From assembly GCA_034530875.2 (NCBI GenBank), contig JAVRCJ020000004.1, positions 327,984 to 391,983 on the forward strand: a stretch of 64,000 bases of DNA. Reading direction: 5' to 3'. Below the pieces are notes generated by a model. That model was not told the DNA's origin and made no database searches. It saw nothing but the letters and a program-made list of their open reading frames with translations. A program made the translations under genes and the position numbers. Every line of letters starts with the position of its first letter. Position 1 is the stretch's first letter. This document shows positions 35,029 to 49,361 of this stretch, piece by piece. Source of the DNA: Nostoc sp. DedSLP01. GTDB lineage: Bacteria > Cyanobacteriota > Cyanobacteriia > Cyanobacteriales > Nostocaceae.

Positions 35029-38000
35029 CTAAGAGATATGTCGCTCAATCCAATCTCCATTGAATATTAATTGGTAAATACGGTTTTGGACTTTGAGAGA
35101 ACCTTGTTGCTTAATAATTAGTCCTGATAAGAGCAATTCTTTTTCTTCTGGACTATCAACTGAAAGTAGTTCTCCTTGGTGTAAAATTTGTCGGTAAAGC
35201 TCTAGGAGTTGGTTAACTTGTAAATCGCTATTGAGAATGCGATCGCGAATAGTTCTTAAATGCTCCGGCTCATCCTGGGATTCCCAATTTTCTATTACAT
35301 TAGTCTGTACCAAATTTTCTATCCATTCGGCTTCAGCGTTGGCCAGAATCACAGATGAAGAGTTACGAATGAGCTTGCAGAGCTTTTGAGTGAGAAAAGG
35401 CTGTCCGTTAGTCCAGTGTAGTACTTCTCTGATGACTTTACGAATAGCGATCGCGTCGCTCACTTTCTCTTTTAATCCTTCGCCTAAAGGATAAACTTCA
35501 TCTTCTTTAAAACCCTCTAGTTGAATTGATTGACCAATATTAAATGGCGTTCGCTTGTGGTCTGAGATTAAATCTGACGGAGTTGCTACGCCAAAGAAAG
35601 CAAAAGTTAAACGCCGATATTCTACGTTGATACTACGCTGGTTATAACAGAAGCGTACCAAAGCAAAAAAGTCATTAACAGAGAAGTTTAAACCTAAGAC
35701 GCTATCAATCTCATCGACAAAAATATAAATTTTTTCACTCTGAATTTGTTTGAGTAAAATATTTTCAATAAATTGACTCAACTTCTGATTTGGTGACAAA
35801 TCTTTGTACTCATTCCACCAAACTGGAAGATTTACCTTATCTAACAAATCAAAACTCTGCCATAATTCCACTGCTAACCCCAAATACCATTGAGCAGGAG
35901 TAATGTTGTCGCTACCAATGCGGGTTAAATCAATTGCCGTACAACTAAATCCTTCTTGCTGGAGATGGTGCATCATGCGTACCATCAAGCTTGATTTACC
36001 CATCTGTCTGGCATTTAGTATATAACAAAAATTACTATGCCTGAGCGCTTGATAAAAGTGACGGTCTGCGGAACGCACTACATAAGTGGGAGCATCCATT
36101 GGCAAACTACCACCAATTTGATAATCATAGCTTGAGAGTTGTTCTGAGCTTTTAAGTAAGTCGTTTTCAAATCTCAGTTTTTCTTGAGTAATTTTAAGTT
36201 CTTCTAGTGTTTTTAACAGTTCTTGATTTCGTTCTTCAACTTTTTGTTCTAAAGTGCGGTTGTAGTCTTCTAATTGTTCGTATAAACGGGAATTTTCAAT
36301 AGAAATGGCAGCTTGACCAGAAAGTATTTTTAATATCTCAATGCGCTCTGGAGTAAATGCGTGTGTGATTAAATTATTTTCTAAATATAAAATGCCGCTT
36401 AATTTGCCTTGATGAAGTAGAGGAATGCAAAGAATTGATTTTGGTTGTACAACAGTAATGTAAGAATCGGTGATAAATTGCCCCTCATGTTCTGCATCAT
36501 CTAAAACCACATTTTCCTGGCTATGGGCAACATAGTTAACAATTGCAGTTGGAACAAGAGGTAAATGGCGAACAGTATCTAGAGTATCTATGGCGATAGA
36601 TTGTAAAACGGTAACATTATCATCATCCATCGCTCCTTCAGCTTCAATAACCCAATTTCCTGCCTTCTCAAGAATCAAAAAACCTTTTTGAGCGCCTGCA
36701 TTTTCTATGCAGATTTTCATTAGTTTTTTTAGCAATTTTTCAATAGTGATTTCACTAGCTATGGTTTGTGACGCTTTGACAACAGTTATTAAATCAAGTT
36801 TTTTACTATCATTGTTACTTGTAGAGATAGTAGTACTAATCTTATTATCTGTTGGGCTATTGATATTTACTAATAAATGGGGATATTCAGCTTCGAGATT
36901 TTTAACTTTCGCTATCGCTCCCCATTGCACATAACAATAGTGAGCATTTTTGAGGTAAAATTGGCCAATTTCTTCTCTACCAGTTACCAGATAAAATTCG
37001 CCTGCACGCTCGTAAGCTATGGCTTCTTCGTGAATGAATTGATATTTTTTAGCGCCTTGAATCGCTTGTTCGTAAAGTTCTTCAGCCTGCCAATTTTGTC
37101 CTAGCGATCGCGCTTTTTCTGCTTCGACTAAAGCGTATTTATGTTGAAAGTTTTCTAGACATTCTTTAGCCCATTTTTTCAGATAATTTTGATTTATTTT
37201 AACTTGTTTGATTGCTGATATTTGTTGTCTTTTAGAAGAATTTTTATAACCAGCAAGCAAAGCGAGGGAAGAATAAAAAATATAATGTGGTAAAGTTATG
37301 TGCGAACTGATATTTTCAACATATTCTCCAGCTTTAATTCCGTGTTGATAAGCTAGCTTGAAGTCTTTAAAAATATAAAAATTAATTAAATTTGTAAAAT
37401 GATTAATGAATAATAACCAAGTATTGAGATTAACGAAATCATTGTTTTGTTCAACTGTATTATCAATATCTAATGAATTGTTTATGAAATTAATTATCAT
37501 CTGGCGGCATTTTTTAGCATAAAAGGTAGAATGCTCTTGCTTTACCTTTTCCATTAATTGAATAAAATTAGTAAAATTATTTTCAACCTCTTCGAGAGGA
37601 TATCCACCAAAAAACCTGATTAAGCAATAACTAACACAGGCAAAGAAAGCATATTCATAATCGCCAACATCAATTCCTGTTTGAAAAGCATCTAGTAAAT
37701 TTTCTTGTGCAGTGGTATCCCGAATCAAATGATTCCAATGCCATATAAAGCCATAATAATCATGCATCACTAAGGCTTTTAGTTTAATAAGATTAAATTT
37801 TTCTACTAAATTAATAGAGAGTTGACCAAATTGATATCCTAATTGAATATTTCTATCTATATTAAGTCTTTTCATTCCCTTACATATAAATGTTCCGTAA
37901 AGAGAATAAGGGGAAGGCGCATAAGGAGAATTCCCATATTGAATGCAAAGATTAACTTGTATTAATACAGCCTCAAGATATAACAAAAAATTTGTCACTA

Positions 38001-47978: not shown

Positions 47979-49361
47979 CTAATTGTTAAGTATCATTTGT
48001 CTTTTTTCATCTACAGAAAACCTTTGAAAGTATTGCCGATATAATTGAGAGCTAGCTATTGCTTTATTGTTATCTAACTTAATCAGCCCCATACTGTTTA
48101 ACTTGTAAGCAATAATGGGTTCTAATGATATGGGTTCGTTAGCATTCATCACGTTGTTAAGAGCGATCGCTAATTCTGGTTGTTCTTGTAAGATTGGTAA
48201 ATGCCGCTGCAAGTAATTAGCATAAATTCCAGTAGATGTAGGAGCAGTTTCTAGTAATTGTGCTAAAGTTTTCTTCTGAGAACTGAGGTCATAAAGTGCA
48301 ATGTGTATTAGCGCTGGATGTCCTCCAACTACTGCCATTAGTTGCTTTGCTTCTTTACCATCAGACCACTCCAGACCGTAACGTTGGGCTAATTCCTGCA
48401 CCTGGTCTAAATTAAAGTCAGGTAACTGAATTGGTAACCCAACATTGAAAGGAGACTGCTGGAGTTGTAAAGGAACATAAATTTCTGTTGAATGCACCAC
48501 AACTAAGCGTAGCTTTTGCCAAATTTTGCATCTTTTTGCTTCTTCAAACCACGAACGCAATAGAGGAAAAAAATCTTTTGCTACTTGCGGATGCTCAAAG
48601 ATATAGTTGACTTCATCTAATGCTAAAATCAGAGAAGTATTAATTTGGTTTAGTACATAATTTCGTAAATAAAAAGTCGAACTGAGTTTACTACCAAAAT
48701 CTTTATTCCAATAGTCATCTAGTTTTTGTTCCATTTGCAGCTGTTGAGTGATATTGGCACATAACCACCGCAAAAATAGATTCGCATCACTGAGAATTGT
48801 CTGGTCAACTTGCTCAAAGTTCAAACTAACCGTGCGGTATTCCATGCGTTCTGCATAATCTAAAATCCTCAACATTAGTGAAGTTTTACCCATTTCTCTG
48901 GGAGCTTTAATCCGTAATAATGCCCCTGGTTTTGTAATCTCTTGATAAACTGATTTCTGAATATTAGAATGTTCAATGTAAAACGGAGAGTTAAGAGGAA
49001 CTGAACCACTAGGATAGCAAGGAAACGCATCTTGCTCTATACCAGAAGCAAACTGTGGAGAGTTTGGTTGAATTGGCTTTGCTGGTGACGTAGTTTGTTC
49101 TGCTATATAAGATTTCAGCACTAGACGGCAATTTTTTTTGTTAATGCGTCTGCCGAACAGTAAAGAAAGTTTTTGATACAATCGTGGAGCAACAATATTG
49201 GTAATGTAGCCGCAGCTATATCTTTGTTCTTGAGCTATTTCATCATAGGTCTTGTTTTCAGATATACCCTGTAAAACTAAAATTTCTGTGGAATGGAGAG
49301 GGTCTTGTTTGATTTCCACTAGCTTGCGATTAAGAATATCGAGGGTTAAATCTATTGACAT
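47979..49361 (-). CDS. HTH + AAA_35 (STAND-like) ATPase regulator
   Basis: N-terminal TYDEIA..YS.GY HTH; PSGSVPLNSPFY, APREMGKTS, LDEV, SPFNVG, GGHP. Confidence 0.88.
   Translation of the reverse strand: MSIDLTLDILNRKLVEIKQDPLHSTEILVLQGISENKTYDEIAQEQRYSCGYITNIVAPRLYQKLSLLFGRRINKKNCRLVLKSYIAEQTTSPAKPIQPNSPQFASGIEQDAFPCYPSGSVPLNSPFYIEHSNIQKSVYQEITKPGALLRIKAPREMGKTSLMLRILDYAERMEYRTVSLNFEQVDQTILSDANLFLRWLCANITQQLQMEQKLDDYWNKDFGSKLSSTFYLRNYVLNQINTSLILALDEVNYIFEHPQVAKDFFPLLRSWFEEAKRCKIWQKLRLVVVHSTEIYVPLQLQQSPFNVGLPIQLPDFNLDQVQELAQRYGLEWSDGKEAKQLMAVVGGHPALIHIALYDLSSQKKTLAQLLETAPTSTGIYANYLQRHLPILQEQPELAIALNNVMNANEPISLEPIIAYKLNSMGLIKLDNNKAIASSQLYRQYFQRFSVDEKRQMILNN

Follow-up and report, generated by a model that had tools for sequence, protein, structure and literature searches.

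The two-chain thiazole/oxazole-modified microcin (TOMM) systems of the NHLP-Burk type, present in Burkholderia, Delftia and Acidovorax and marked by TIGR03795 together with TIGR03882/TIGR03604 and TIGR03903, were predicted in 2010 as kinase-linked and exporter-less (PMC2887384; see also PMC4603692), and they are among the described systems closest to the gene cassette considered here. This cassette lies on the minus strand of a 64,000-nucleotide stretch of Nostoc sp. DedSLP01 (contig JAVRCJ020000004.1, positions 327,984–391,983; the whole stretch is called the window), between window positions 35029 and 49361. An earlier interpretation made from the letters alone (the sequence-only reading) had placed seven co-oriented genes there, and all seven open reading frames (ORFs) were found at these positions and on this strand. 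It appears fairly probable that the cassette places an azole on the C-terminus of a 207-aa protein with a predicted fold, and the capped product would possibly act intracellularly on the giant kinase encoded next to it.

A second body of work concerns oxygenases of the BarH type. LynB7 carries out the oxidative decarboxylation of thiazoline-4-carboxylates with Fe2+ and O2, requires a free carboxylate and uses D11, H13, H197, E252, D320, H323 and D325 (PMC10127204). E0U9F9, described in 2026, is diiron-dependent and decarboxylates a phenylthiazoline carboxylate; it belongs to the dominant clade, about 69% of which has a ‘thiazoline synthase’ neighbour and for which that text gives no natural product, and BarH-type oxygenases are reported there solely from cyanobacteria and Myxococcota (PMC13154177). 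No precursor is named in the passages of the same paper and its supplement that were consulted, and the words ‘precursor’ and ‘YcaO’ have no match in the supplement text; the gene clusters of its Figure S15C may show more. The C-terminus of bottromycin, too, is a decarboxylated azole that derives from an azoline formed by YcaO, and its terminal thiazole step is assigned to the P450 BtmJ (PMC10127204).

The cassette shares with NHLP-Burk systems a fused cyclodehydratase, a large Ser/Thr kinase and the lack of a transporter, as well as precursors that are presumably related to nitrile hydratase alpha, may be paired, lack a double-glycine motif and have a very short cyclisable tail. It differs in that the cassette kinase reaches 134 bits against TIGR03903 (cut-off 705.75) and carries GAF and AAA_35 domains in place of the NHLP-Burk cyclase, no cyclase domain being matched, in that its precursors are 150–400 aa long, and in that a BarH-type oxygenase and a dedicated radical SAM enzyme are added. 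NHLP-Burk has a tandem pair of precursors, one of them ending Cys or Cys-Cys; the related cassettes at loci L014, L019 and L053 have a long and a short one, the window has a broken long gene and a TTT tail, and many loci have a single precursor. The cassette works like NHLP-Burk but fails the TIGR03795 and TIGR03903 family models, and may be considered as a tractable route into NHLP-Burk-type systems, which have been uncharacterised since 2010.

The cassette is real and conserved, and had been partly mislabelled. Its designation as undescribed needs narrowing, since PMC13154177 described the E0U9F9 clade with a neighbouring YcaO in 2026, and a kinase-linked NHLP system without an exporter had been predicted in 2010 (PMC2887384); on the combination of genes, the substrate, the product and the kinase link, no paper was found in a search whose reach excluded most subscription journals.

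The oxygenase, the cyclodehydratase and the candidate substrate

The gene annotated Amidohydro_2 (43940–45025, minus strand) encodes a BarH/LynB7-family diiron oxygenase, predicted to be an azoline-4-carboxylate oxidative decarboxylase. By sequence it is a member of the BarH/E0U9F9 clade, with 266 of 360 residues (74%) identical to E0U9F9 (P0164 = UniRef100_E0U9F9) and 220 of 364 (60%) to a BarH-named NRPS-linked protein at L095 (NRPS, nonribosomal peptide synthetase). Its best PDB match is the diiron monooxygenase PtmU3 (E 1.8e-41). Residues D11, H13, H197, E252, D320, H323 and D325 correspond to the LynB7 ligands at the same residue numbers, the family motifs are present (N-terminal D-x-H, C-terminal D-x-P-H-x-D/E, central His and Glu), and the ligands are kept in 98–107 of 107 homologues per site. 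The oxygenase tree was a quick one with BarH on a long branch, and no order of events was drawn from it. BarH, LynB7 and DolJ, as well as the E0U9F9 clade, share the fold and ligands of the cassette enzyme; the first three finish products of NRPSs and polyketide synthases, whereas the predicted substrates of the cassette are protein tails ending mostly in Ser or Thr, which would give oxazolines. Since LynB7 requires a free 4-carboxylate, only a C-terminal ring could serve. Locus L136, which encodes a protein identical to E0U9F9, has the order YcaO, oxygenase, a 385-aa precursor ending PYLPLSTT, kinase-AAA_35 and AAA_35, and is by sequence the same system as the window cassette.

The sequence-only reading had likened this protein to the bottromycin amidohydrolase. 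A hydrolase of the PurAH/BotAH type, cutting the precursor beside an azoline, would agree with the Pfam assignment and with a cluster that has no other peptidase, and it would provide for the 10 of 90 precursors with a non-cyclisable last residue that needs removal. The cassette enzyme, however, is 74% identical to an oxidative decarboxylase of tested activity and has all the diiron ligands, and LynB7 shares only 14% identity with PurAH (PMC10127204); these points speak against the analogy and make such a hydrolase highly improbable; PurAH was absent among the 38 PDB matches of the oxygenase, and no follower peptide is found after the S/T/C tail. Bottromycin has a follower peptide, a macroamidine YcaO and a PurAH/BotAH hydrolase; the cassette is without these, and its amidohydrolase-fold protein is likely an oxidative decarboxylase. 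An aside of the same reading, that the family includes decarboxylases, pointed in the right direction, but the change to be expected is oxidative, with a calculated loss of 46 Da from the azoline and not 44 Da.

The fused E1-YcaO cyclodehydratase proposed earlier (45604–47910, minus strand) is borne out: the protein matches Pfam YcaO and ThiF, scores 264.8 bits against TIGR03604 (cut-off 219) and 167 bits against TIGR03882 (cut-off 37), and is of the cyanobactin PatD/TruD type, with PDB matches to MusD, LynD and TruD at E < 1e-200. A YcaO enzyme that trims is known in MusD (PMC10885120). A MusD-like trimming role was suggested by the top PDB rank, but the ordinary YcaO of a Nif11 cluster in the same genome also ranks MusD first (820 v 812 bits), so that the ranking is no evidence for trimming. 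Cyanobactin systems (PatD/TruD/LynD/MusD) have the same YcaO type but also a PatA/PatG protease, a PatE-type cassette precursor and a prenyltransferase, none of which is present at the loci examined here; PatA/PatG proteases occur neither among the window genes nor among recurring neighbours. A separate classical TOMM cluster with Nif11 leaders, at L002 (G000:C23, 2940–17942), comprises four precursors ending after a GG site, a YcaO gene, a SagB gene on the opposite strand, and HlyD-like and ABC transporter genes.

The candidate substrate is the 207-aa protein (42608–43231, minus strand), which is predicted to be folded, ends PFIPVTTT (PFIP-VTTT) and fits no Pfam or NCBIfam family. Its family comprises 77 representatives at 50% clustering, and among 401 genomes sampled from the order, 69 encode relatives. 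Tail statistics were obtained from 71 full-length proteins with the tail pattern out of 83 retrieved, 12 partial or atypical ones being omitted. The last residue is Ser in 38, Cys in 16 and Thr in 15 (69 of 71), the second-last is Cys, Thr or Ser in all 71, the last three are all Cys, Ser or Thr in 61, and Pro stands at position −5 in 63. For other ORFs at the same loci the corresponding counts are 91 of 644 for the last residue and 4 of 644 for all of the last three. Once seven broken or atypical ORFs were dropped, a cyclisable residue (Cys, Ser or Thr) was found at −1 or −2 in 90 of 90 locus precursors. Precursors linked to a secreted CxxCH protein have such a residue at the last position in 14 of 14 cases and at the second-last in one, a pattern that speaks for cyclisation of the last residue itself; the 10 of 90 tails in which only the second-last residue is cyclisable would need trimming. 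The tail data therefore allow two routes, namely direct cyclisation of the last residue, or trimming first. No clean rule was found relating the tail to the presence of the radical SAM gene.

AlphaFold2 gave a confident globular model of the 207-aa protein that includes the tail (predicted local distance difference test score, pLDDT, 90.9; predicted template modelling score, pTM, 0.88). A Foldseek search with this model gave nothing at E <= 0.001, and the alpha chains of nitrile hydratase came up only at E 3–5; a fold search gave VIA as the best match with a Z of 3.4, which is not significant, and the ESM Atlas returned for the protein only unnamed clusters under 0.9. The body is under purifying selection, as judged from crude ratios of nonsynonymous to synonymous substitution of 0.24 and 0.33 against two relatives, and the confident predicted fold, tail included, suggests that it is a protein rather than a throw-away leader. 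In HHalign the family profile matched the ~108-aa NHLP-like precursors of sister cassettes (96.6%, E 6.5e-10), which in turn match nitrile hydratase alpha in profile comparison (E 8e-14); these short precursors score 35–49.8 bits against TIGR03793 (cut-off 50.9) and 19–21 bits against TIGR03795 (cut-off 41). The 207-aa protein itself has no match to TIGR03793 and no GG site, and TIGR03795 matched neither it nor 24 relatives, nor the locus in a genome scan at E 1. It is presumably a distant relative of NHLP and nitrile hydratase alpha proteins. The family may be considered as a candidate substrate family for the E0U9F9 clade, spread over those 69 genomes and open to a precise mass prediction.

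Linkage of the cassette and its variable slot

Neighbourhoods of about 20 kb were taken around 79 precursor matches (19 loci and 60 regions, strongest first), plus the window and a second partial cassette on contig C52. Five duplicates were removed, as was a locus at which no precursor had been called, so that 75 loci were kept; at several of these, missing genes reflect contig ends. A co-oriented kinase is present at 67 of the 75, the oxygenase at 64, YcaO at 60 and all three at 54. The view of the sequence-only reading, a RiPP-like modification system (ribosomally synthesised and post-translationally modified peptide) with the 207-aa protein as likely substrate, is supported by this linkage together with the tail bias. 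The genome of the window strain encodes 31 full-length kinases of the same build in 8.57 Mb, so that a co-oriented one is expected in an estimated 5% or so of 20-kb stretches, and the observed co-occurrence is far above chance. In the reverse direction, 40 loci chosen by oxygenase matches (a subset of these matches) contain YcaO in 34 cases and the kinase in 26; their precursors include short NHLP-like proteins ending CC or TC, two-gene pairs and two-domain fusions.

As to the forms that precursors take elsewhere, L112, L114, L125, L126, L130 and L133 have pairs of about 107 and 105–150 aa, with ends such as YGIMRQS and YGVLRVC, plus a divergent DyP-type peroxidase, and L118, L121, L123 and L127 have a fused two-domain form. 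At L053 (G032:C7), a close relative, YcaO and oxygenase have been lost from the locus and both precursors, the radical SAM gene and the kinase have been kept; that genome has a 76%-identical YcaO on a different contig, an arrangement that suggests action in trans. L017 holds seven precursor-like ORFs and several kinase pieces within 20 kb. An ORF at L063 (13014–14162), with similar ones in L049 and L061, matches the Bacillus HBL Pfam family and lies inside or beside cassettes.

The radical SAM enzyme (40880–42268, minus strand; Pfam Radical_SAM and SPASM) has a SPASM/Twitch domain and a unique N-terminus of ~130 aa, for which the ESM Atlas gave no match; its PDB matches (MoaA, BtrN, BlsE) are only weak. 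Orthologues occur in 11 of the 401 genomes, always next to a precursor gene (11 of 11), and by these sequence criteria the enzyme is dedicated to the cassette, which thereby supplies a radical SAM enzyme with a reaction yet to be assigned. The radical SAM gene is found at 26 of the 75 loci, compared with 13 for a long-type precursor, 13 for the secreted CxxCH protein and four for an O-methyltransferase. The slot filled here by radical SAM holds a DyP peroxidase, SagB, a flavin amine oxidase, a Rieske oxygenase, an O-methyltransferase or the secreted CxxCH protein at other loci, and the CxxCH protein and radical SAM never occur at the same one of the 75. Particular to the window are the radical-SAM variant, the threonine-only tail, the AAA_35 output and a recently broken second precursor. 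The CxxCH protein (470–590 aa, with a C-terminal CxxCH and what appears to be a signal peptide, and matched by no Pfam or NCBIfam family) directly adjoins the precursor; it was seen at L068 (10521–12131), L047 (7895–9547), L138 (10543–12231) and 11 other loci, where the precursors have Cys, Ser or Thr at the last position only.

No cluster gene matched a SagB, peptidase or exporter family in the Pfam and NCBIfam scans, as had been stated earlier. Across the 75 loci no HlyD and only one weak C39-ABC fragment were found, and no recurring peptidase was seen among the clustered neighbours; SagB homologues are present at one precursor-anchored locus (L051), at five of the 40 oxygenase-anchored loci and at L137.

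These observations bear on an alternative with the same chemistry, in which the body is a giant leader and a housekeeping peptidase cuts after the conserved Pro, releasing an azole peptide of 3–5 residues with a decarboxylated end, comparable to the terminal thiazoles of barbamide and lyngbyapeptin, the kinase then sensing a small molecule or merely regulating the operon. The Pro at −5 in 63 of 71 representatives, the link of the family to NHLP leaders, which are normally removed (PMC2887384), the finishing of small molecules by BarH-type enzymes (PMC10127204) and a prolyl oligopeptidase near the oxygenase in L114 are all in its favour. GAF domains, moreover, bind small ligands. No peptidase or exporter recurs over the 75 loci, however, the precursors have no double-glycine motif, and the body is 150–400 aa long, predicted to be folded with an ordered tail, and under purifying selection, so that release of a small peptide is considered unlikely.

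The giant kinase and the proposed mechanism

The giant Ser/Thr kinase (35029–40866, minus strand) has the Pfam architecture Pkinase-AAA_16 (STAND-like)-GAF-AAA_35 (type B) and likely starts at an ATG 24 codons into the called ORF. A FastTree tree of 80 cassette kinases and 29 paralogues from the genome placed 52 cassette kinases, including that of the window, in one clade free of paralogues. Kinase domain residues 61–180 are 0.65–0.73 identical to cassette kinases and 0.41–0.47 to paralogues, and for the GAF region the respective values are 0.55–0.67 and 0.32–0.53. The C-terminal output in relatives is AAA_35, a His-kinase (HATPase_c) or a SpoIIE phosphatase; the cassette retains the sensor half of the protein, and only the output is exchanged.

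The second AAA_35 protein (type A; 47979–49361, minus strand; Pfam AAA_35, E 4e-148) has an N-terminal domain of ~100 aa that was taken as a helix-turn-helix (HTH) domain and has no Pfam match. Of the 44 loci at which the kinase ends in AAA_35, 34 have a solo AAA_35 gene, compared with 2 of 21 loci with a His-kinase output. Throughout the genome the two types come in pairs, a type-B partner accompanying 11 of the 12 type-A copies at 0.5–2.6 kb except here (12.9 kb), and in several relatives both genes lie downstream of the cassette. The two AAA_35 genes had been read as a fixed bracket around the cluster; because of this pairing they are better described as one output module, the type-A protein being the likely partner, by sequence, of the kinase's C-terminal AAA_35 domain. 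The link to kinase/STAND signalling that had been suggested is supported and conserved, with a co-oriented kinase at 67 of 75 loci.

The kinase motifs HKDINPSN, DFG and APE look intact, the kinase domain is the most conserved region among the cassette kinases, and the tail and body of the precursor are rich in Ser and Thr. These features would suit a kinase that acts upstream or as a tailoring enzyme, phosphorylating the precursor or the enzymes or switching the operon on, with the azole-capped protein having another target. STAND and GAF domains and exchangeable outputs are typical of sensors, and tailoring leaves unexplained why the type of output predicts the partner gene; we regard such a role as improbable.

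Participation in defence had also been suggested, and an anti-phage system triggered by the kinase-STAND protein would be in line with the patchy distribution (69 of 401 genomes), with frequent gene decay and insertions, and with a GC content lower than that of the flanks. The suggestion gains no specific support from PADLOC 2023, the matches of which are generic, concern the kinase domain and the radical-SAM core only and leave five of the seven proteins unmatched. With 31 such kinases in the genome, and with outputs that are His-kinase, phosphatase or AAA_35 regulators and not effectors, defence is most unlikely.

In the preferred reading, that of a retained azole cap sensed by the kinase, the E1-YcaO enzyme would, very probably, form methyloxazolines by ATP-dependent cyclodehydration of at least one of the three final Thr residues. 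The diiron oxygenase, to judge from its 74%-identical tested relative, would probably then use O2 to remove the terminal azoline carboxylate and aromatise the ring to a terminal methyloxazole. As the oxygenase would aromatise the terminal ring, no SagB would be needed for that ring, and the oxygenase likely stands in, at the end of the chain, for the SagB that the cluster lacks. The radical SAM enzyme may add one further change to the same tail, filling the slot that varies among relatives. The tail is slightly more apt to stay on the protein than to be released, since there is no double-glycine site, peptidase or exporter. The weakest step, to which we give somewhat less than even credence, is that the modified protein might bind the kinase-STAND-GAF sensor, with an output through the AAA_35 pair ending in the presumed HTH regulator. 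Accordingly, protein termini and oxazolines are predicted to be substrates of BarH-type enzymes, and such an activity would be a useful tool for C-terminal azole formation in which no flavin dehydrogenase is required. A bolder and rather doubtful extension is that the cassette represents a signalling module widespread in cyanobacteria, in which the azole-capped folded protein is an intracellular messenger, with an O2- and iron-dependent cap, in this variant a radical SAM mark, a dedicated kinase-STAND-GAF receptor and plug-in outputs; the cap could then report oxygen or iron status. If the kinase does read the cap, a ligand would be in hand for a class of giant cyanobacterial kinases with 31 members in this genome.

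Several points weigh against this reading. LynB7 and E0U9F9 were assayed on small thiazolines alone, and the window tail has no Cys; cyclisation of a residue with a free carboxylate by a PatD-type YcaO is not established in the literature consulted. Ten of the 90 precursors end in Leu, Val, Phe or Trp, their second-last residue alone qualifying, and the oxygenase could not use these without trimming. The link of the 207-aa protein to NHLP is indirect, because it runs through the short sister precursors and the protein itself matches no NHLP model. On the side of the kinase, 14 of the 40 oxygenase-anchored loci, some of them with YcaO, have no co-oriented kinase, the cassette kinases are not monophyletic (52 + 17 + 7 + 4, scattered in the FastTree tree, support values not considered), and the excess conservation of kinase domain and GAF partly reflects kinship. 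The locus counts are not independent trials, since the loci come from cyanobacterial genomes that are kin, and the support is wholly computational, from sequence and predicted structure.

The broken second precursor and the genomic setting

The 115-aa ORF (43548–43895, minus strand), previously regarded as a free-standing component without assignment, is the 5' third of a second precursor gene of ~350 aa that has suffered an internal frameshifting deletion. The long precursor is intact in L014, L019 and L053 (347–353 aa, ending PYLPLSTC or PYIPLSCT). The match of the window sequence to L019 extends over 329 nt; the following 688 nt are missing, and similarity is taken up again, in another frame, for the final 37 nt of the gene. 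This out-of-frame 3' end (43533–43569, minus strand) encodes PYPYIPLSCT and a stop and matches the end of the L019 gene at 94.6%. A contig of run X4 differs at 9 positions over the adjoining 1270 nt and has about 687 extra bases at 43569, and runs X1 and X2, which may be the window's own source, carry the deleted form. The long precursor gene is thus broken by a 688-nt deletion in the window strain, which leaves only the 207-aa protein, and perhaps the long precursor of contig C52, as substrates here.

Contig C52 opens with the partial cassette, made up of a broken oxygenase end, an intact 348-aa long precursor ending SYIPFTCS, a kinase-AAA_35 gene and an AAA_35 gene; a YcaO belonging to it was not found in the assembly. 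This cassette is followed directly (L001, G000:C52, 1–16000) by phage-tail-sheath genes of the contractile injection type. The amidohydrolase remnant noticed earlier in the window is real but short: what decay has left of the 3' part of another copy of the oxygenase gene (43299–43379, minus strand) spans 22–27 codons with 41–55% identity (blastx, best E 2e-4), and similar fragments occur in L070 and L031.

The GC content of the cassette stretch is 31–39%, against about 43–47% on the flanks, and the close relatives are named Nostoc. Promoter and terminator scans gave no signals above those of shuffled sequences. Short repeated elements lie in the intergenic gaps at 42431–42464, 43363–43406 and 45392–45533 and have counterparts in a number of further contigs of the same runs; the one at about 45200–45570 is missing from relatives.

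Divergent from the cassette, an extracytoplasmic function (ECF) sigma factor and a TPR protein are encoded at 50382–52885 (plus strand). Of the 75 precursor loci, 12 have a homologue of the former nearby and 8 one of the latter, in distant families too, and because of this recurrence they may belong to the regulation of the cassette. Further along, the minus strand at 53697–56036 encodes a 779-aa protein that has internal repeats and, C-terminally, an HExxH motif; it adjoins a 240-aa protein of no family (52988–53710, minus strand). The larger one has weak matches alone (Pfam vWF_A at E 0.006, and a lincosamide nucleotidyltransferase model far under its cut-off), and we take the two to resemble a secreted effector-partner pair. 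At the other side of the window (5057–8038, minus strand), a 993-aa protein reads from its sequence as leucine-rich repeats followed by a GTPase-like region, and presumably resembles Roco proteins.

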